From Octopus vulgaris (taxonomy: Eukaryota), in assembly GCA_951406725.2 (NCBI GenBank), contig OX597815.1:84382001-84446000 (forward strand): a stretch of 64,000 nt of DNA, in the 5' to 3' direction. Below the pieces are notes generated by a model. That model saw only the letters and a list, made by a program, of their open reading frames with translations. It did not search any database and was not told the origin of the DNA. Positions 2,159 through 61,804 of this stretch are shown piece by piece (position 1 is the stretch's first letter; each line of letters starts with the position of its first letter). The position numbers and the translations under genes were made by a program.

Positions 2159-3760
2159 TGTATGTATGTATGTATGTATGTACGTTTTTATTATATAAAA
2201 TGATTCTATAAAATTAGAAATTTGTTTTGAATAGCTGTGAAATACATCAGAGGTAATACATTCTACATATTAAGTGTACAACTGAAAAATATTGTTGTTC
2301 GGAAGTTAAATCCAATGGCTCTAAATAGAAATGACTTTAACATTGAATACCCGTATTTCTTAGACACTCTCTCCACAATATTATTAGTACCATGATTGAA
2401 AAATGATTTTGATGACAAAAGCTTTACGGACTTCTTTGGTGATAAGGCCTGATTTTTAATTCAATGTAAATTTGACCAGAATTAAAACCGATGAAAATAT
2501 GCTCGCATACAAACTCGCAGGCAAGCTCGCGCGATCACATATGCGTGTGCACATGCATGCACGCGCACATACACACGTACATATGTGTATGTGTGCGTGT
2601 GTGTCTGCGTTATATACAGATATATATTATGCATATGTTTGTATACACGTGCGCGTGTTTGTGCACACACTCATGCGCACATACTCATAAAGGCGAACGT
2701 GCACACGCACGCACGCACAGGCACTCCCACGCACAATACCTTATTCATACAAACATTTCCATGCATATATACACAGTACACGTAAGCATCACACCAGCCA
2801 TGCCAGCCTACCCGCAAATCCACACTCCTTGTATATGCACAGCTACACGAGTGTACATATATACACGCGCGCAATACACGCATACACATGTACACACACA
2901 CACGCATGCATATGCACACACATACATACACACACATACATACACAAACATACATACACTAATATATATATACACCCCCACATCCACACAATAACTATAT
3001 ACACAAATATATATACATGCACACACATACGCATACACTCGTGCACGCACAGACGCACACATACATAATTACACCCACCCACACACTCACACACACACAT
3101 ATGCGCTTGCACATACGCACACAAGCTCATAATCTCACAAGCCCCAATGAATCCCTTCCCAGACTCACGGTCGCCAACTTTTTCTTGTCCATCCAATGCA
3201 ACCGCTGTCACTTATTTAGGAATACTACTAACGCTGACATTACAGGACCTTCCTTCACCAATTTCAACCCATCCACTGGTAGCCACCTTGGACTTCTTTT
3301 CGGTACCCAAGCAAGCAACACAGAACCTCGTAACCTCCAAGAAACTATTTTGATGAAGGCATACAATCCTTTGTTTTTCATCACAGGACACCAGTCGTCT
3401 CTCACAAGCCGCCATGTCGACTGTTGAATGTTCCAATAATGTAAGATCATAAGAAGTAACTGTTAACCCATTAACAGTCTTCTAAACAACAAATGCCTCG
3501 ATTAGTAGTTCATTTTCTCTAAGTGAGGCTTAACTTTTGGCCACTGCAATTTGGAAGATTGCTTGTTATTTCCTCATAACTTACGAAATATCTATTTCAT
3601 TCACTTGAAATCTTCACAATAGATATCAGATGTATATAAATATGGGTAAAATATCTAGTCTCGACGTTTTGTTAATCTCCTATAATAACTATTTTAAATA
3701 CCTTAAATATCTAGGGGGTCTCTCCCAATCACTTGACCTTGTAGCGATGATCCAGTATTT

Positions 3761-4163
3761 TGTGAAACTTGGAGCGAGTATGAGGCTTGTTATGGTGTTT
3801 TGCGTCACGCTTACAAACTTCTACCAACTAAGCTACATTATTGGAGCACATTCAACTCCCTTTGGATGATATCAGAGCGATATAAAAGTTGGATCTTCCT
3901 GAGAATGTTCTTAGGGTTCATGAGTTTGCGCAGAATAGGTTTTATAGAATTTTTTATTCATGAGATTATGGTTAATTTGCAATTATTGTTGGTCACGCAG
4001 ATCCATCAAGTTCTTTTCCGTGTTGGAATTAGTTATATTCACTGAACAATACAATTGGAAGGTATAGCTGATAATCAACAATAACGTCAAAATTGTGTAC
4101 GTAAGGGTACGTAATATATATATATATATATAAATTCTTTTGTTGTTTTATTTGTTAAATTGT

Positions 4164-4213
<50 letters not shown>

Positions 4214-4466
4214 CAATTTAACAAATAAAACAACAAAAGAATTTTATTTAATTCATTTTGCAGGAAGGACTCCTTCGGCCGGATCGTGTTCTGCCCTTAC
4301 CTTCGAAACACGCACTGTGTCGAACCAGGGGCAGCTGATAAAGGAGAATAATCCTTGTATTGTTTGTCTTGTACTCTGTTTTTTCGTTGTTAAAAAGTCC
4401 GTTTCCTTGTTTGATTTTATGTTTTCGTTTCTCGTTGTGTTCTACGTTTATTTGTGGTGTCCTGTA

Positions 4467-4536
<70 letters not shown>

Positions 4537-4791
4537 TACAGGACACCACAAATAAACGTAGAACACAACGAGAAACGAAAACATAAAATCAAACAAGGAA
4601 ACGGACTTTTTTAACAACGAAAAAACAGAGTACAAGACAAACAATACAAGGATTATTCTCCTTTATCAGCTGCCCCTGGTTCGACACAGTGCGTGTTTCG
4701 AAGGTAAGGGCAGAACACGATCCGGCCGAAGGAGTCCTTCCTGCAAAATGAATTAAATAAAATTCTTTTGTTGTTTTATTTGTTAAATTGT

Positions 4792-4829
<38 letters not shown>

Positions 4830-5230
4830 ACAATTTAACAAATAAAACAACAAAAGAATTTATATATATATATATATTACGTACCCTTACGTACACAATT
4901 TTGACGTTATTGTTGATTATCAGCTATACCTTCCAATTGTATTGTTCAGTGAATATAACTAATTCCAACACGGAAAAGAACTTGATGGATCTGCGTGACC
5001 AACAATAATTGCAAATTAACCATAATCTCATGAATAAAAAATTCTATAAAACCTATTCTGCGCAAACTCATGAACACTAAGAACATTCTCAGGAAGATCC
5101 AACTTTTATATCGCTCTGATATCATCCAAAGGGAGTTGAATGTGCTCCAATAATGTAGCTTAGTTGGTAGAAGTTTGTAAGCGTGACGCAAAACACCATA
5201 ACAAGCCTCATACTCGCTCCAAGTTTCACA
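3761..5230. repeat. About 1.47 kb near-perfect palindrome centred on (TA)n
   Basis: 3761-4470 is the reverse complement of 4533-5230; visible differences are one substitution (3915 vs 5076), one change at a TA edge and TA tract lengths; ORFs 3800+ and 4946- give the same peptide. Confidence 0.97.
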
Positions 5231-6384
5231 TATATATATGCATGTATATATACATATAGATGTAGGTATGTACATATATGTATGTATGTATGCATATGTT
5301 TTATTTGTTTTATTTGTTAAATTGTCATTATATAATTGAACGCCTCGCGTCACTTTCTTATTTCTCCAAGTTTTTATTATATATATATATATATATGTCT
5401 CTACATATATTTCAATTTGCGCTAAATTTGAGTTTGTATCGGAAGCAAGTGGAAAACACGAATAATGCGCAGCCGCAGAGATGAAAGGAAGTAAAGTCAG
5501 AGAAAAAGACAATGTGTATTTCATGTAGACATTCGTAACATTTTTCTACACGCACATACACACGTACATATACATGTGCGCTTGAAGAAAAGTGTCACAC
5601 GTAAAAATACATATACTGCTGCAAAAGTGTGTCAATGCGAAGTAATAAGAATTATCCGCTCTTTCCTTTAAGCTTACATTTTTCTAACAGTCTTCGTTAT
5701 TGTCACCTCCCTTCTTCTCTTCCATCGCATTAAGACTAAGTGACAGTGGATGACAGAAAAGGAGAAACAATGCCAAAACGTCACTACAAATTTAGAGATT
5801 GTGAGGTTGTCCTGGAGGAATGGTGTCATTACTTAATACAATTTAGCTTTCTTATTTTTCATTCTAACAATAAAGACATGTATCTTTTAGCATTGTGCAT
5901 GCGTGTATGTGTATGTGTATGTGCATGCGTGCGTGCGTGTGTGTGTGTGTGTGTCTGTCTGTCTGTATGTGTATATATGTGTGGGGGGTATGTACGTCCG
6001 TGAGTATGTGTGTGTCTGTGTGTGTGTGTGTCTGTCTGTCTGTGTATTGGTAAACTACTAAAATTTCGCGATTTTCAATCCGTTGTTCAGTTTCATTATA
6101 GAACAGATAAAAGTCCATTATTTCGTTATTTATTTACAATTTCGAAAGATTATATTACAACAATTATTTAAAAAGTGTTCCGTTCCTAATATGTCTTACC
6201 ACATAAATTCGTGTAAAGCGATTGGCGCAAAGAAGTGAAATTTTAACGGTTTTGTGAAAGGGATAGCATCTACATAGATATATACATATATGCATACATA
6301 CATACATACGGAAAGACAGACAGACAGTCAGACAAAGACACACGCACGCAAACACACATATGTATATAGCCGATTTCTAGTTGT

Positions 6385-15848: not shown

Positions 15849-16361
15849 AGACAGTTGTATGCATACATATATGTACGTACACAAGTTAATATGCGAACAA
15901 GCATGGTTGGCATTGCATATGTACATCTTATACTGAATTTCTAGAATGCTTTATATTTTTAACAGTGCCTTTCATAACAAGTAGCTATTGTCTTCTAGTT
16001 AATCGCATTCTTCTTGGTTTTGAGAATCACAGTTTGTCAAGCATAGTATCGAAGCAATTAGTCATGTTGTCATATGCTGAAATAATTAGTAGAAATGTAA
16101 AGTTATAATCTCGATAGAGTACCGGCAGTTTTCTTATCACTGCAGCATAGATATTCACCGTTTCATTAATCTTTAACATTTACTTGACATACACTTGTAA
16201 TCTCCGTTGTTTTCTATTATGAGAATTCATTTGTTCAGTCTAATAAATTCTGTCAAATTTGAATTAAATAGCTAAATAACGATTAAATAGCTAATCATTT
16301 TACAGATCAGTATATCCTAGCCGTAATTCTCTGACAGGGTCAACGTGACAAATTGTAACAG

Positions 16362-17393
16362 AATCCATGAAGATATTCTGAGAACTTTAACAGACAATGC
16401 TCCTTCATATGCAACAGTCAAACGCAGGGTAAATGAATTCCAGCGTGGCAGGGAGATTGTGGAAGATGATCCCAGACCAGGGAGACCTCCAACTGCAACC
16501 ACCGAGGACAACATTGACCATGCTCTTGGTATGATAATGCAAGATCCTCAGATAGCCGAGAGACAGAGCATCTCAACTGAAAGAGCAGACAAAAGAACTT
16601 CGGTTCTCAAAGGTTTCTGCACGGTGGATCCCTCGCCTTTTGATTCCTGAACAGAAACGCACCAGGTGCACTTTGTCCACGAGCAATCTGCAACTGTTTG
16701 AAGCCGATAAAGAGAATTTTCTTGCTCGTTTCATTACTATGGACGAAAGTTGGGTTTATCACAACCAGCTTGAAGCCAAAGAACAAGCAAAGCAGTGGAA
16801 GCACACATCCTCTCCTGCCGCAAAGAAAGCCAATGTCATTCCTTCAGCTGCCAAGGTCATGGCGTCAGTATTTTTGGATTCTCAAGGTGTCTTGCTGATC
16901 GATTACCTTGAAAAGGGTCACACCGTGACAGGACTGTATTGTTCTCAGCTACTGAAACGCCTCCGAGAAGCAATCAAAGAAAAAAGGCCAGGAATGCTCA
17001 ACACAGGAGTCCTTTTTCATCATGACAATGCTCCAGTTCACACCTCAGTGGTTGCCATGGCAACAATTCGTGATTGTGAGTAAGAACTTGTTCCCCGTCC
17101 GCCTTATTCGCCAGACTTAGCCCCCTCTGACTTTTATCTGTTCCCAAAGATGAAAAAGCCCTGGCTGATCGCCATTTTGCCAGTGACAATGACGTCATAG
17201 ACGCTGTAGGAAGTTTCTTGGAGTCTCAAATAAAAGAGTTCCTCTACACCGGGATAACTGCGCTTCAGCACCGCTGGAGAAAGTGATCAATCATCGAGTG
17301 GGAAGGGGCTATGTTGAAAAATAAATCATCAGAAGTCTTGTAATATGTTTTTTTTATTTTTTGAGGTTCAAGACTCTCCATACACCCCTCGTA
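16362..17393 (+). mobile_element. Mariner (D,D34D-type) transposon, 5' truncated, transposase pseudogene
   Basis: PRPGRP, RWIPRLL, ITMDESW, HHDNAPVH, PYSPDLAPSDF and GYVEK* over frameshifts and stops; right end cacccctcg|TA resembles a mariner TIR plus TA target. Confidence 0.93.
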
Positions 17394-19781: not shown

Positions 19782-20801
19782 ACATAAATGACCATTCCAG
19801 AGTCGTAAATCACTGCAAAGTGAAAATATTTGCTGATGACACTAAGCTCCAGCAAATCATCAATAAAGAAGAAGACCGAACTCAACTCCAGTATGATCTA
19901 TATGCTGAGAGTCAATGGGCAGACAAAAGCAAAATGCAACTGAGAGAAAATTTGAGCTGATGCATTTTAGAAGAAAGTCTATACTAAAACAGCCATACTC
20001 TCTTCCTTCAGGGGAACCGCTCACAGCATCTAACAATATATAATTGGGTATAATTGTAGATAACCATCTCAGTTGGAGTGCCCACAACAACAATAAGGTC
20101 GATATAGCTTGTAGGATGAGCTCCTGGATTTTAAGAACATTTCGGTCCAGAGAACTAGGTGTCATCATTCAAGTTTTCTCCTCCTTTGTACGGCCACACC
20201 TCAAATACTGCTGCCCCTTGTGGTCTCCCCATACAAAACAGAACATCTAGATGATTGGATCGCCCCAGAGGACACTCACTAAACGAATTGAAAGCATGAC
20301 TGATCTTGGTTATTGGGACCGCCTTAAAGCATTGAAACTCTACTCTCTCCAGCGCCGCCGCGAATGGTACATCATTTGTACAATGTTGAGAATATACCGC
20401 CAGCATTGCCCAAACGACCTGAATATTAGTTTCAAGGTTCATCCAAGGCTGGTACTACGGGCCTTACGTCCCCTGCCCAATTCAGGATCACAGCATATAG
20501 GTACACTGCAACATAATTTCTTTTCCTCAAGAGGCCCTGCCCTGTTTAACATTATCCCAAAAGAGATCAAAGAGGAAGAGGATCTCATCACCTTTAAACG
20601 GAGTCTGGACAGATTTCTTCAAGGAATACCGTATAAGCCACCCATACCTGGATACAACTCAACAAGATCTCACTACTTGAATAGACCATAAACAAAACTT
20701 TACTTAAACAGGGTTTAGATAATCCTATCAGGTGGTGCTATTAAGTTAGACATGGCCTGGATCAATCTTTGGTCGAAACATATCTAAGTTTATCTAAGTT
20801 T
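19778..20801 (+). mobile_element. CR1/L2-group LINE, 3' fragment of ORF2 and 3' UTR
   Basis: IYIND, FADDTKL (19829), LGIIVDNHLSW, FVRPHLKYCCPLWSP, SLQRRR; ends in the tandem tail (tatctaagtt)2. Confidence 0.9.
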
Positions 20802-38690: not shown

Positions 38691-40104
38691 TATATAGAAT
38701 AAAATAATGATAGTAAAGGAAGGAGGGAAATAAGTAGAGTAGAAACGAATGTGAACGTTAGTAAATAGATAGAAAGAATAAATAACCCTAACTCAAAATA
38801 TCTAAATATATGATATAGTTAAAATTCTGTAAATGAATGAAAGACTGAAAGTGCAGTGTAAACAAAAATGGATGCTTAAAGAGTTTAAAAACGAATATAA
38901 AGATGCAGATTTAAGGTTAAAGAACGAAAATAAAACACAAGAAAGCTAGAAAAGCGCAAAATACGAAATTGGTTACGAAAACTAGAGTGAGAGAAAATAG
39001 AGACCCGAAAGAAAGGAAGGCAGACAGAAAGAGGGAAAGAAAGTAATAAACAAGAAATAGGCGAGGAAGGTGAGATACAAAGAAGTAAATGCTTAAGAGA
39101 AACAACACGCAACAATAAAACTCTGGAGGATTCTAGAGACACCAAGGTTCAGTGATTTTAGTGTCTTGATTGTTTACCTCTTACAGAGAAAACAGATTAA
39201 CGATCGCATATTGACATGACAATATGGCTGAGTGGAAATACGTCAGAGGATCAATCTGAACACTAAATGCACATGCGGTAGAGTGTCAGATATATAATAG
39301 AGTGAGCTGAAAACTAAGGTTATCTTTACAATTAGAAAACACAAAAACTCCATTTTCATTTATGGTTGTTTAAAGTGTAAACAAAAGAAGAATGGGAGAT
39401 AACTATAAGAATTCTATTTGATATTAAAGACTTTAAAAACTATAGACACCGTTGTTAGAATGAGTTATTTTCTTTAAAGCCAACCGTTGAAAGCACTGAG
39501 CATGCTTCGAGATTGTAGCATATTCGGTACAGTCTTTAAGACATACAAATGTTGATGCTCTACTGCATCGAATATTTAGCATGCACAACGCTCCATTGAG
39601 ATATTGCTTCGTCCGGTTTATTGTCGTGTGTGTGTGTTTAAGTGTGTACGTGTGTGTGTGTGTTTTCTTATACATATACATATATGAGAAATATGACTGG
39701 CGAGTGTTGGTGCCGCCACTTATGGTTGCTTTCGGAGTAAGAGGCAGAGAAAGAGAGTTTGCTGAGAATTGGAAGAGAAGTTGCAGTTTCCCTTTAAGGG
39801 GAGAGACCCACTCAGGGCTCCTAATTTTCGTTTTTTTTTTCTTTGCTTATTATTATGCACGGTCTTTTTCTTATAAATGAGAGAATATAGGAAATAATAT
39901 TTCCATATGAAATATTAATTCCCTGTAATTCATTTTTCTTCCCAATTTGAGTGTCCTAGTAGCTGCATATAACGTTATTTCGCTCCAATTGGAGCTTGTC
40001 AATACAACGAAACTTGGGATCATGAAAATGGTCTATGTTCATTTAAAACATTTAGTAATCATATAAGATCGATTTTCTTTTCTTCTTTTTTGTCTTACTA
40101 CTAC

Positions 40105-44774: not shown

Positions 44775-45235
44775 TATAATTTTATAAAAACGTGGAATAA
44801 ATAAACAAACGAACATATACTAAATACACAGGCGAACAGAAGACACAGGTCACCAACCCCTCATCAGTTTTCGACCAGAGGTTCAAAAGCAATTTCGGCC
44901 AATTATCGATAATATTGCTTCCATTCTGGAAGCACCGACAAGAAACTTGCCGGGAATTGGACCAAAACATAACAAAACAAGACGGACTCGAGACGAGACT
45001 GTTAGTGGACGGACGATGGACAAAACAATAAACAGGATAAAGGCTTAGGAAGAAGAGAAAGACAACAATTAATAATACTAATAATACATATACAACAAAA
45101 AAAAGCCGTGTGACTGCAAGACGGACAAAAGTTGGTAACGTAAAGGACACGAGAGTGGTAGAACGAGGAGCAAAGAGACTCTTGACCAGTCCAATCGAAG
45201 GTAACGCGAATAGGAATGACATCGCCTTAGATCAT
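44775..45235 (-). mobile_element. Unclassified repeat, Penelope pLTR-like
   Basis: T-rich 3' end running into TA; GAAA...gaacc...CTGATGAGGGG layout shared with the unit at 4243-4470. Confidence 0.35.
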
Positions 45236-50037: not shown

Positions 50038-50800
50038 TTTGTGTCTAGTGAGGAAATGTTTATCTACTAAGGCTAGGAATTTTTTACCTATTCTAGAAAT
50101 TTTGACGGAGAACCATATCACTTCCTTGGGTCTATTTTCATGTTTGGTTCTTGCTAGCGATGGAGCATATGGAATTTTCTCTTCATAGTCACTGTTGGCC
50201 AGGACTCCTTACCGACAATTTGTAGGGATTTTCCTTATAGAAAAATTTCTTTAGCGAAAGCGAAAATATATGGTATATTACAAATTTTAGCAATAAGGTT
50301 TCTAGAGACGATGAGAGTGTTGCAAGACAGTGTATGTTCTTAAGTTTATAATTTGGGTTATGTTAGGCTAGTAAGGGTTTAAATACGTATGAAGTTGAAG
50401 AGGATATATATTGTTTTCGTAAAGATATCGAGTGCATAGCCATCACAGCCGAGGGATATATATATATCATTGGTATTAGATCAAATATTTCAATATAGTA
50501 TATGATTCGAACGATATGTTTAGAACAGTTCGTCCGGGTCGGATTTCATTTAAGCAGAGTTTTTTAGTCAGTGGCAAAATCGGCAAAGAGATGCTTTCTT
50601 CCTACCCGATCGGTAAAATGCGTCCCAATCATCTATTGTAATTATGTAAATCGACTCATGCACCCCACTCTCCTTAGATATATGATCTACTTCTTATGTT
50701 ATTATGATTCCATTTTTGTTTATCTCAACTCAAAATTAGACTTGATTGAACAAAGCTACGTCGAAATGCACGCCCATTGTGACTGACCCATTTTTTATTC

Positions 50801-56190: not shown

Positions 56191-56708
56191 TATCGTAAAG
56201 CGTTTGTCTTCTGTAGAATATTTAAATTATTGCTGTCCGTCTATCAAACGAACAGTATTAATAATATCAATAAATCTGTTGAATGTCGGACCACGATAAT
56301 GTATCTCGCTACTTTTTGCCATAACTCCTATTATTTTTTAGCTCAAATCTCCCTAAGTTTATCATTCTCGTTCAAACTATCCGGGTCTATGAATAAATAC
56401 TTGTCCAGTTCAGGGTCACAACAATTTTTTGTATTACCTTCCCCCAAACAGGTTTATTGTTAACGTTATTAGTTATGTCTGGTTTAGAGGTAGATCTATT
56501 TGCATAATTCCTTGAAACATATGAGATGCATGGAGTTTTAATATGGCAACCAATAAAGAATATTACTAATAATGTTTTCTATTTTTAGCACAAGTACAGG
56601 ACGTGTCTCTAAACTTGTTTCGCTTTATTCTGATCTCATCCTTAAAGTATAGTGTTTGGCATTGGTGTTACCTCTTACATAAAGCTTTATATATATATAT
56701 ATATATAT

Positions 56709-57426
56709 ATATTATATTAAATTAGAGATAAAACCACTACTAGGCAAATCAAACAGTGAAAATCATAAGCCAATACATAGAAATAAAATTTTAAAATATA
56801 TAAAAAATATAAAATATAAAATATAAAAATCCAATTAAAATATTTAAATTAAAGTTAAAATTTTAAAAAATTATTAAAATTAATAATTTTAACTTATAAA
56901 TATATATATATATATTTATTATTATTTTATTTAATTATTTTTTTTCATTATTATTATTTATATTTTTTATTTATTTATTTACCCTTTATCTTATTAAACT
57001 TTTAATACTTTTTGATAGTTTATGAAAAATAAATAAATAAATAAATAAATAAATAAATATAAAAATATAAAAATACAAAAAATATAATAAAAAACATTTT
57101 AATATAAAAAAATATAAAAATATAAAAATATAAAAATAAAAAATAAATAAATAAACAAATATAAATAATAATAAAAAAAAATAATAAATAATTAAATAAA
57201 ATAATAAAAATATATATATATTTATAATTTATAAGTTTAAATTATTAATTTAAATGATTTTTTTAAATTTTAACTTTAATTTAAATATTTTAATTGGATT
57301 TTTACATTTTATATTTTATATTTTATATTTTTTATATATTTTTAAATTTTATTTCTATGTATTGGCTTATGATTTTCCCTGTTTGATTTGCCTAGTAATG
57401 GTTTTATCTCTAATTTAATATAATAT
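56709..57426. repeat. Very AT-rich inverted repeat (about 270 bp arms) between (TA)n tracts
   Basis: attaaattagagataaaacca.tactaggcaaatcaaacag.gaaaatcataagccaatacatagaaat at 56717 is mirrored at 57350-57418; right arm extends about 80 bp further. Confidence 0.92.
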
Positions 57427-57506
57427 ATATTTATACTATAAAATTAGATTTAATCCTACCTCTAATTTTTCCCTGTAAGTTTGGATTTACTCCCTAATAT
57501 TATTAT

Positions 57507-57613: not shown

Positions 57614-58139
57614 ATAACAGTGCGCGACCTTCTTCAGTATGAGTTACTGGGCAAAAGTTCCAAATCCGCCACGTTAAAAGTTCATCAGCGTTCTGGGTTA
57701 TTTTGTGTCAAACAAACAAAAGAAAAATCAGTACGCGTGGCGCAAAATATTTATGAGCAAAAACTTTCGAATGTAAACATTGGTTGAATTGGGATTTTAG
57801 CTCTCAGTTCTAAATAGATTGATGCTTATTGCATCATAACGCTTCGTACTAATTTTATATTTTATACATATATAACGCTATTAAACCTGTGAACCGCCTA
57901 TGTTACTGCTGTTAATATTATCAATTAGAAATATTCACCATAAATTGTATTAAGAGTGGTAACATCTTATTTCGAATGTAGACATTCGAATGGCTTTCCT
58001 TATAAATATTTTGCACCACTCGTACTGTTTTTTGGGGGGTTTTTTGCACAAAATAAGCCACAACTCTGATGGATTTATAACGTGGCACATTTGGAATTTT
58101 TGCCCAGTAACTCATACTTGAAAAGGTTGCGTACTGTTA
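57614..58139. mobile_element. MITE/foldback element with about 170 bp diverged TIRs
   Basis: taacagt.cgc.acctt...agtatgagttactgggcaaaa.ttccaaat..gccacgtta at both ends in inverted orientation. Confidence 0.85.
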
Positions 58140-58428: not shown

Positions 58429-58518
<90 letters not shown>

Positions 58519-58688
58519 GTAAAGTATAGAAGCCATCTTAACATGGCTAACCACATAGGGGAGGGGGTGTTACTGTAGCTTTATAGCACCAGGAGATCGT
58601 CGTCTCCAGCTGGCTTTAGATACCATTTCAGTGCCCTTGAAGTATTTGCAAAGGGAGGCCACCCCATTCCCTTCAAGCCTGAGTGATA

Positions 58689-58731
58689 CGCTCGGACTAG
58701 TTTCGGGATTTTTGTCCCTTGTCAACGGGCG
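58689..58731 (-). ncRNA. Minimal hammerhead, U3-A8 variant, copy 1
   Basis: cgcccg TTGACAA GGGA caaaaa TCCC GAAA CTAG TC cgagcg; palindromic ACUAGU, GUC site. Confidence 0.8.
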
Positions 58732-59045
58732 GTAACCACCAGGTCGCGATGAAAGAGAAGGCCGCTTTGCAAATATATAAGAGTTTTTCTAGTGACGTCT
58801 GCCACTGATTTCGAAAAACTGACAGTAAGCATTGTTAAATCTCAGAATGAGATTGAAACAGTAATCGCTCGATAATGTAAAATATAGAAGCCATCTTAAC
58901 ATGGCTAACCACATAGGGGAGGGGGTGTTACTGTAGCTTTATAGCCACAGGAGATCGTCGTCTCCAGCTGGCTTTAGACACCATTTCAGTGCCCTTGAAG
59001 TATTTGCAAAGGGAGGCCATCCCTTCCTCGCAAGCCTGAGAGATA

Positions 59046-59088
59046 CGCTCGGACTAGTTTCGGGATTTTTGTCCCTTGTCAACGGGCG
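59046..59088 (-). ncRNA. Minimal hammerhead, U3-A8 variant, copy 2
   Basis: Same sequence as 58689-58731. Confidence 0.8.
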
Positions 59089-59425
59089 GTAACCACCAGG
59101 TCGCGATGAAAGAGAAGGCCGCCTTGCAAATATATAAGAGAAAGGGCTGCTAAGCCTAAACGAGGTTTTGGTGGTGAACGTGTAAATCAAGCTTGGACAG
59201 GAGACAGACAAGAACACGTCTTCTTTGTTCCAGCTACAACGAAGAGAAACAAAGAAACACAAGTTAGGAGAAGAAAGGAAGTTGGCCGATGGTCACGTGA
59301 GAGCCACGTGAGCAAGGCATGAAGAGTGAGGGAGAGAGAGTGACAGAGTAATAGAATAGAATATTTTTGTTGTACACGTTTTATGACGTCTTGTGCCCGC
59401 GTATGTACATATACGTGTGTATATA

Positions 59426-61185: not shown

Positions 61186-61594
61186 AGGAAGCGAGCTGGC
61201 AGAAACGTTAGCACACCGGACGAAATTCTTAGCGGTATTTCGTCTGTCTTTACATTCTCAGTTCAAATTCTGCCGAAGTCGACATTGCCTTTCATCCTTT
61301 CGGGATCGATAAATTAAGTACCAGTTGCGTACTGGGGTCAATCTAATTGACTGGCCCCCTTCCCAAAAATTTCGGCCCTTGTGCCAAGAGTAGAAAAGAA
61401 ATGTTAGCGCACCGGGAGAAATGCCAAACGATATTTCGACTGTCTTTACGTTCTGAGTTCAAATTCCGCCGAGGTCGACTTTGCCTTTCATCGTTTCGGG
61501 AGTCGATAAATTAAGTATCAGTTGCGTACTGATGTTGATCTAATCGACTGGCCTCTCCCCAAGCATTTCGGGCCTTGTGCCTAGAGTAGAAAAG
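61186..61594 (+). mobile_element. Head-to-tail Nin-domain-like SINE dimer with a 19-bp TSD
   Basis: Monomers 61190-61400 and 61401-61594; aatattcttatcggtacta at 61167-85 and 61595-613. Confidence 0.92.
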
Positions 61595-61804
61595 AATATT
61601 CTTATCGGTACTAGACGAACGAAAAGTAAATATCGGTCCAGAAGGAAATACTGCAAGATATCGTATCTTTATTACCATGTATACTTAAATATGTGTGTAT
61701 TTGTATTTATGCGTGTATGTATATGTATACATGTATACATGCATAGATGTGTGTGTGACTCTATGTGTGTCTGTGTGTGCGTGTATGTGTACTGTGTCTG
61801 ATAT

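Follow-up and report, generated by a model that had tools for sequence, protein, structure and literature searches.

What kind of element places two hammerhead ribozyme motifs, in direct repeats on one strand, in this part of the Octopus vulgaris genome, and which machinery inserted it there? Our window (the whole stretch of DNA analysed, 64 kb in length) is repeat-rich, with a GC content of about 35% and dense microsatellites. Two direct repeats at 58513-58783 and 58871-59140 are 95.9% alike (11 differences in 271 alignment columns) and are separated by a gap of 87 nt, termed the 'spacer' below, much as an initial annotation had described them (two direct repeats of about 270 nt), and no third copy of the repeat was found elsewhere in the 64-kb window. 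The locus amounts to 1.76 copies of a 357-nt non-coding unit with its 3' end in (TATC)n, and the element extends from approximately 58514 to 59140. Its features, and those at its edges, are as follows:

58466..58516, no strand assigned: (GATA)n / (TATC)n microsatellite at the 3' junction; (TA)n precedes it
58514..58870, minus strand: complete 357-nt unit (87-nt spacer plus repeat copy A), from the repeat comparison; the spacer is contiguous in differing copies elsewhere
58871..59140, minus strand: repeat copy B, a 5'-truncated second unit (270 of 357 nt) giving a partial tandem of 1.76 units, from the repeat comparison
58673..58743, minus strand: hammerhead A, canonical type I, with U3-A8 core and palindromic helix III; predicted cut 3' of 58695
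59030..59100, minus strand: hammerhead B, core as in A, with a private distal helix I change at 59041; predicted cut 3' of 59052
58695..59051, minus strand: predicted cut-to-cut monomer of 357 nt, 45% GC, computed from the predicted cuts
58828..58874, minus strand: Penelope-type 'tail', 43-47 nt between two 3' ends of family copies, with a predicted hairpin at 58833-58860
59142..59400, no strand assigned: fragment of a different many-copy repeat, outside the unit and joined directly to its truncated 5' end

As the 357-nt unit and its tandem junction also occur elsewhere, we read 58514-58870 as a full unit and 58871-59140, which precedes it, as a 5'-truncated one. The feature as first drawn ran to 59360, a boundary that has to be moved to about 59140: contigs from four public sequencing runs (50, 37, 9 and 5 per run) continue before 59142 into another shared sequence, which is absent from the 64-kb window, and consequently the last ~220 bp of that feature are a different repeat, to which 59142-59400 belongs. 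This second repeat joins the unit without a target remnant, and its copies enter (TA)n-like sequence at their right end; the direct joint may be the product of a two-template insertion or of a later rearrangement. The fragment 59142-59400 is left unassigned, its resemblance to a stretch at 44780-45200 being weak (score 27 vs 17.5 in shuffles). The latter stretch, on the minus strand, is T-rich, holds half a hammerhead core and ends in TA, and is possibly the 3' end of another Penelope-like element.

The earlier statement that the locus contains no credible ORF is borne out by a Pfam scan of the 150 longest filtered frames of the window (113 shorter frames lay outside the scan), in which the three frames that overlap the feature have no match. 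Tandem Repeats Finder gave no report of the locus and, given that it holds only 1.76 units, a pipeline based on tandem repeats would miss a retrozyme here.

Other elements of various kinds lie in the window, although tRNA genes are absent from all 64 kb. A mariner transposase remnant occupies two frames at 16327-17083 on the plus strand (Pfam Transposase_1, E 2.7e-18), while a frame at 20251-20688 (plus strand) is without a Pfam match, has six relatives in a protein search, and resembles what we take to be the end of a LINE ORF2. Decayed AT-rich DNA at 50568-50783 (plus strand) gives a weak reverse-transcriptase match (RVT_1, E 0.003, below cut-off). An (AT)n tract at 4470-4533 forms the centre of a long inverted duplication (~3700-5550) in which opposite-strand frames share text; the duplication is either a real fold-back or an assembly artefact. 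Adjoining elements are an AT-rich fold-back inverted repeat at 56700-57435, with arms that are 97% complementary, and a MITE-like inverted repeat (84%) at 57615-58139; at 61201-61596, a presumably SINE-like unit of 196 bp occurs twice, head to tail, the two copies being 85% alike.

The Rfam model HH9 matches the minus strand at 58673-58743 (33.1 bits, E 2.8e-6) and 59030-59100 (29.7 bits, E 3.5e-5), with E-values that refer to the 1021 nt searched and scores that are both below the family cut-off of 52. At gathering level there are 0 Rfam matches in the 64-kb window, and matches by E-value are otherwise to miRNA and snoRNA models and lie largely on microsatellites (150 of 180 listed). A descriptor scan of the window returned three hammerhead motifs, with cuts 3' of 59052, 58695 and an unrelated 39968, the first two being 357 nt apart in agreement with the cuts and spacing predicted from the sequence at the outset. 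Applied to 200 block shuffles, the same scan gave a mean of 0.155 matches, with two or more in 1 of 200 and three in 0 of 200; the motifs are far above chance. The third motif (39945-40022, minus strand, predicted cut 3' of 39968) has a U3-A8 core and a 10-nt palindromic helix III, scores 18.7 bits with HH9 (E 0.07), and is single copy, its likeness to the 357-nt unit not going beyond chance.

Both HH9 matches and descriptor scan confirm that the twin motifs have the same U3-A8 core, ACUAGU palindrome and GUC site. Helix I comprises six positions with one C.A mismatch, followed by an HH9-like internal loop and a long stem; helix II has 4 bp and a six-base CAAAAA loop; helix III is one pair capped by the palindromic tetraloop. 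The motifs had been called minimal, yet this architecture is that of the canonical animal type defined by Cervera & de la Pena 2014 (PMC4209133), whereas the minimal Penelope hammerhead is described there as having a long helix II, an extra base after position 9 and a short helix I. Predicted fold energies are -21.3 and -18.2 kcal/mol, and pairing probabilities for helices I and II in the precursor are predicted to be at least 0.85 at most pairs. For helix III, the palindrome duplex is computed at -4.8 kcal/mol and the monomer cost at +5.6; nested folding, a method unable to model the dimer fold, returns a dimer pair probability of 0.001. The helix is still palindromic in one variant contig (ACUGCAGU).

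The initial annotation also held that the ribozymes are identical while their flanks differ. A 43-nt core is indeed unchanged, but the twins differ in distal helix I at 59041/58684 (at 59041 the letter of copy B is private, all other contig depth having that of copy A), and an unchanged core of this length is within chance (P 0.14, or 0.35 with clustered changes merged), so that selective conservation of the two ribozyme cores is rejected. Among the variants listed (40 of 103, position 3 not being one of them), position 8 of the core is G, not A, in 68% (X3) and 73% (X7) of depth.

Folded as a circle, the 357-nt monomer has a predicted energy of -113.5 kcal/mol, compared with -84.3 +/- 5.7 in 100 shuffles (z -5.1); 66% of it is paired, with helices I and II formed and the ribozyme free. 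The long stem of the hammerhead arm carries most of this signal (z -4.4), and the fold outside the arm is modest (z -2.6, with 2 of 30 control windows scoring lower). The range 58663-58775 gives z -0.09, a value that should not be set against that of copy B, since one of the arm's two strands falls outside this range. Among 25 family variants inside the unit, six fall on unpaired and 19 on paired bases of the predicted fold; of the latter, ten break a pair, six keep it, and three are rescued by a change in the partner (two compensated pairs). Family variation supports the predicted fold in part only.

The wider family was sampled in contigs of four of 24 listed public runs, compared with 58784-59400 only, a range that leaves copy A outside. 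Two of the four runs are guessed to be RNA and none is recorded as RNA, contig depth gives no copy number, RNA level or RNA ends, and the records listed are 40 of 103 variants, 15 of 29 joints, 24 of 461 loose ends and 32 of 4395 pieces. Matching contigs number 2758, 1352, 138 and 77 in the four runs and fall into identity classes from 99+ to <90%, the largest being 90-95% in three of the four. The spacer is spanned by contigs with letters unlike the window (at 58824 and 58834, up to 41 and 51 letters from the contig end), and X17 records 9 and 10 bridge repeat and spacer. Furthermore, among the joints listed, one X3 contig, which carries variant letters, returns from 59120 to 58784, and in X7 at least three contigs run from 59140 into the spacer start. 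Because contigs that differ from the window extend across both the entire spacer and the tandem junction, the 357-nt unit is a trait of the family. A search for other copies with the same 87-nt spacer had been proposed along with the initial annotation: spacer and junction recur in contigs of the four public runs, and the repeat-spacer-repeat layout is thus found at other loci. The 357-nt repeat exists as many dispersed copies, and its tandem junction is not unique to this locus.

At no fewer than six positions (58950, 58957, 58982, 58983, 58988 and 59077), both twins carry a letter that is in the minority in X3, as expected from one template, and at three sites where they differ and a family letter is listed, it is copy A that has the family letter. 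One X17 contig of depth 1376 (monomer ends ~60-120) covers 58871-59030 with letters rare in the DNA runs; as contigs reveal neither the level nor the ends of an RNA, we base no conclusion on it. Exact and degenerate motif scans of metagenome, viral and prokaryote collections gave 0 matches, and short motifs of the unit and the adjacent repeat have no meaningful match in the accessible parts of the supplements of PMC8557442 and PMC13282606, where line breaks may hide matches.

Which machinery moved these copies is indicated by the marks they bear. Penelope elements are described as having inverted repeats, an optional 31-bp tail and target duplications of 8-10 bp (PMC3846280), Penelope-like elements as leaving partial tandems and using microsatellite targets (Craig 2021), and the tail has been explained by two adjacent start sites of the reverse transcriptase (RT) at a stem-loop (PMC11167929). 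Partial tandem, 5' truncation and head-to-head inverted copy are all present when this locus and the family contigs are taken together. At least four head-to-head junctions occur, in three of the four runs; X17 record 9, for example, has 58828-58963 on one strand and 59100-58916 on the other, and a joint in X3 links 58973 to 59048 on opposite strands. Behind the loose ends at 59078 (X17) and 58940 (X7) are short inverted 3' pieces, which map to 58875-58894 and 58831-58847, respectively.

The 3' ends fall at ~58875 (this locus and one X17 contig) and at 58828-58831 (X17 and X7, with a step in summed depth across 58826 in all four runs), and the 43-47 nt between them, a predicted hairpin, form an optional tail that is slightly longer than the 30-40 bp quoted for Penelope-like elements. 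Copy A ends at the equivalent of 58875 and gives way to (TATC)n, the first TATC of which equals the four nucleotides that follow the same point inside the unit, a match that may represent primer-template microhomology. A target duplication is lacking at this locus. In X17, the loose ends at 58828 and 59078, each known from a single contig and perhaps not from one and the same, have a 10-mer in common at the outer junction. We read the pair as a probable single insertion that is tailed at one end only and has a target duplication of 10 bp or more, a layout described for Penelope elements (PMC3846280, Craig 2021, PMC11167929). We have little doubt that the mobilisation of the family is of Penelope type, and the insertion marks in its copies uphold the initial view of a non-autonomous, non-coding hammerhead repeat likely to depend on a Penelope-like RT.

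Our preferred explanation, to which we assign a probability of roughly 0.65, is that the locus is one aged copy of a many-copy 357-nt non-LTR retrozyme, likely inserted by a Penelope-like RT and endonuclease and with a predicted circular RNA cycle. It is reasonably probable that the family makes RNA circles; that this particular locus is still productive is doubtful. Under the proposed cycle, a tandem transcript would be made from the repeat, two motifs would pair through the ACUAGU palindrome, so completing helix III as a dimer, and would excise the monomer, and a host ligase would close it (RtcB is reported to have closed axolotl and mussel monomers in vitro; PMC7229834). A Penelope-like protein would cut the target DNA and start reverse transcription at either side of the tail hairpin, at this locus from the (GATA)n end with 4 nt of microhomology, and copying would pass one unit and stop early to leave a partial tandem. 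Divergence of 4% between the twins points to an aged copy, differences in 11 of 271 columns meaning that either the locus is old or the template was not a single circle; the octopus calibration quoted in PMC13282606 would date the copy to a few million years. Counting against this explanation are the C.A mismatch in helix I, the distal change in copy B, the mostly G position 8 in X3 and X7, the modest fold outside the hammerhead arm and the ten family variants that break a predicted pair.

The insertion template covered both cut sites, and consequently was a circle or an uncut multimer, or else template jumps were involved. An alternative that we consider unlikely, though it is the main rival, is that a non-autonomous Penelope-like element moves via an uncut linear multimeric transcript, with no circle formed and the hammerhead being inherited baggage or acting at a different step. 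The cDNA at this locus does cross two intact cut sites, and in the anole Penelope, the one reconstituted system, cleavage is reported as not needed for insertion: insertion by ribozyme mutants was normal in vitro, with no reads terminating at the cut site (PMC11167929). Moreover, non-autonomous Chlamys elements are described as making pLTRs and head-to-tail arrays in a clade most members of which lack hammerheads (Craig 2021), and of nine Xenopus retrozyme dimers assayed in vitro, one cleaved and eight did not (bioRxiv 10.64898/2026.07.22.740005). However, the motif here is of the canonical retrozyme type, with tertiary-contact loops, and not of the minimal Penelope type; it is set on the long stem noted above, its palindrome is kept in a variant, and circles were made by all three animal retrozymes for which northern blots are reported (PMC7229834, PMC7761336). 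The published in vitro Penelope assay (PMC11167929) could tell a circle from an uncut multimer as the source of insertions longer than one unit.

Distinctly more improbable is a reading of the repeats as terminal repeats left by an autonomous Penelope-like element whose ORF has disappeared from this locus, or as an accidental joining of two truncated copies. Autonomous elements are known to leave a partial tandem, a tail and a truncation (Craig 2021, PMC3846280), and summed contig depth steps down left of 58826 in all four runs, indicating that most copies have no link to the next unit; yet contigs unlike the window span the whole spacer and tandem junction, as expected of a family-wide unit, that unit has neither ORF nor Pfam match, and its hammerhead architecture is canonical. 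The undescribed self-processing RNA system originally suggested is favoured by the lack of matches in Rfam at cut-off level and in the metagenome, viral and prokaryote collections, but its chance is very slim: every sequence-level feature tested, target duplication aside, matches published animal non-LTR retrozymes (PMC7229834, bioRxiv 10.64898/2026.07.22.740005), and U3-A8 cores are published for Schistosoma Penelope hammerheads (~1300 hits; PMC4209133).

If the retrozyme reading is retained, a more specific and tentative proposal is that retrozyme circles are the direct substrate of a Penelope-like RT/endonuclease via a portable tail hairpin, the target ends being primed independently and sometimes on different RNAs. 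Were this so, the locus would be one two-ended insertion that brought the retrozyme and an unrelated repeat together, one on either side, and the family would provide footprint-level evidence of the machinery that moves animal retrozymes.

The kind of element is already known and its sequence family is new: a limited literature search found no description of the 357-nt family or of any cephalopod retrozyme, and Repbase or Dfam may hold the family. With the class known, the element itself will be no surprise to a specialist. Animal non-LTR retrozymes have already been proposed as Penelope parasites; a 2026 preprint argues for Penelope-like elements from co-occurrence and sequence similarity (bioRxiv 10.64898/2026.07.22.740005), and according to a 2020 review animal retrozymes show no motif that reveals the mobilising element (PMC7761336). 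The use of the present family is mechanistic, in that the copies themselves bear Penelope insertion marks, the mobilisation question becomes testable, and the tail hairpin is a candidate RT-start signal.

Comparison with known systems places the locus more exactly. Like plant LTR retrozymes (PMC5680766, PMC7761336), it has two hammerheads in direct repeats that bound a non-coding monomer; theirs, however, are described as type III ribozymes with circles of 600-1000 nt, 4-bp duplications and Ty3-type priming sites, whereas here we find type I, 357 nt and Penelope marks. With its type I topology and 357-nt length, the locus is not a plant LTR retrozyme.

Penelope-like elements with an endonuclease (Penelope/Poseidon, Neptune, Naiad, Hydra; PMC3846280, Craig 2021, PMC11167929, PMC4209133) share with this family the partial tandem, 5' truncation, head-to-head inverted copy, optional tail between two start sites, microsatellite target, hammerhead in the repeat and U3-A8 variant, and are also described with 8-10-bp target duplications. 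Their quoted tail is 30-40 bp, in contrast to 43-47 nt here. Autonomous members differ further in having an RT and GIY-YIG ORF, where here 87 nt without a Pfam match lie between the repeats, and in their minimal hammerhead, which here is canonical. An autonomous Penelope element was rejected in view of the missing RT/GIY-YIG ORF between the repeats and the missing minimal hammerhead.

The closest likeness is to animal non-LTR retrozymes (Cervera & de la Pena 2020, PMC7229834; Li, Clavereau & Pollet 2026), with which the locus shares a canonical type I hammerhead, a non-coding sequence of many copies with GC below 50% (45% here), and a self-paired predicted circle that leaves the ribozyme free. 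The features by which they are recognised are found here too: a tandem unit of 150-450 bp, with two successive units each holding a complete motif, and a predicted motif fold below -5 kcal/mol. The unit has the size of mussel retrozymes (350-390 bp), matches axolotl retrozymes in size and layout, and has the same one-pair helix III with palindromic tetraloop as amphibian retrozymes, which are reported to cleave well only as a dimer (all PMC7229834). Their target duplication exceeds 4 bp when present; here one of at least 10 bp would apply to one other copy only. Differences are the new sequence family, the U3-A8 core and the 1.76 units, and Penelope tail and inverted-copy footprints are visible here that the portions of PMC7229834 and of the 2026 preprint available to us do not report for retrozymes. 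By the sequence-level features tested, target duplication aside, the locus is a member of the animal non-LTR retrozymes.
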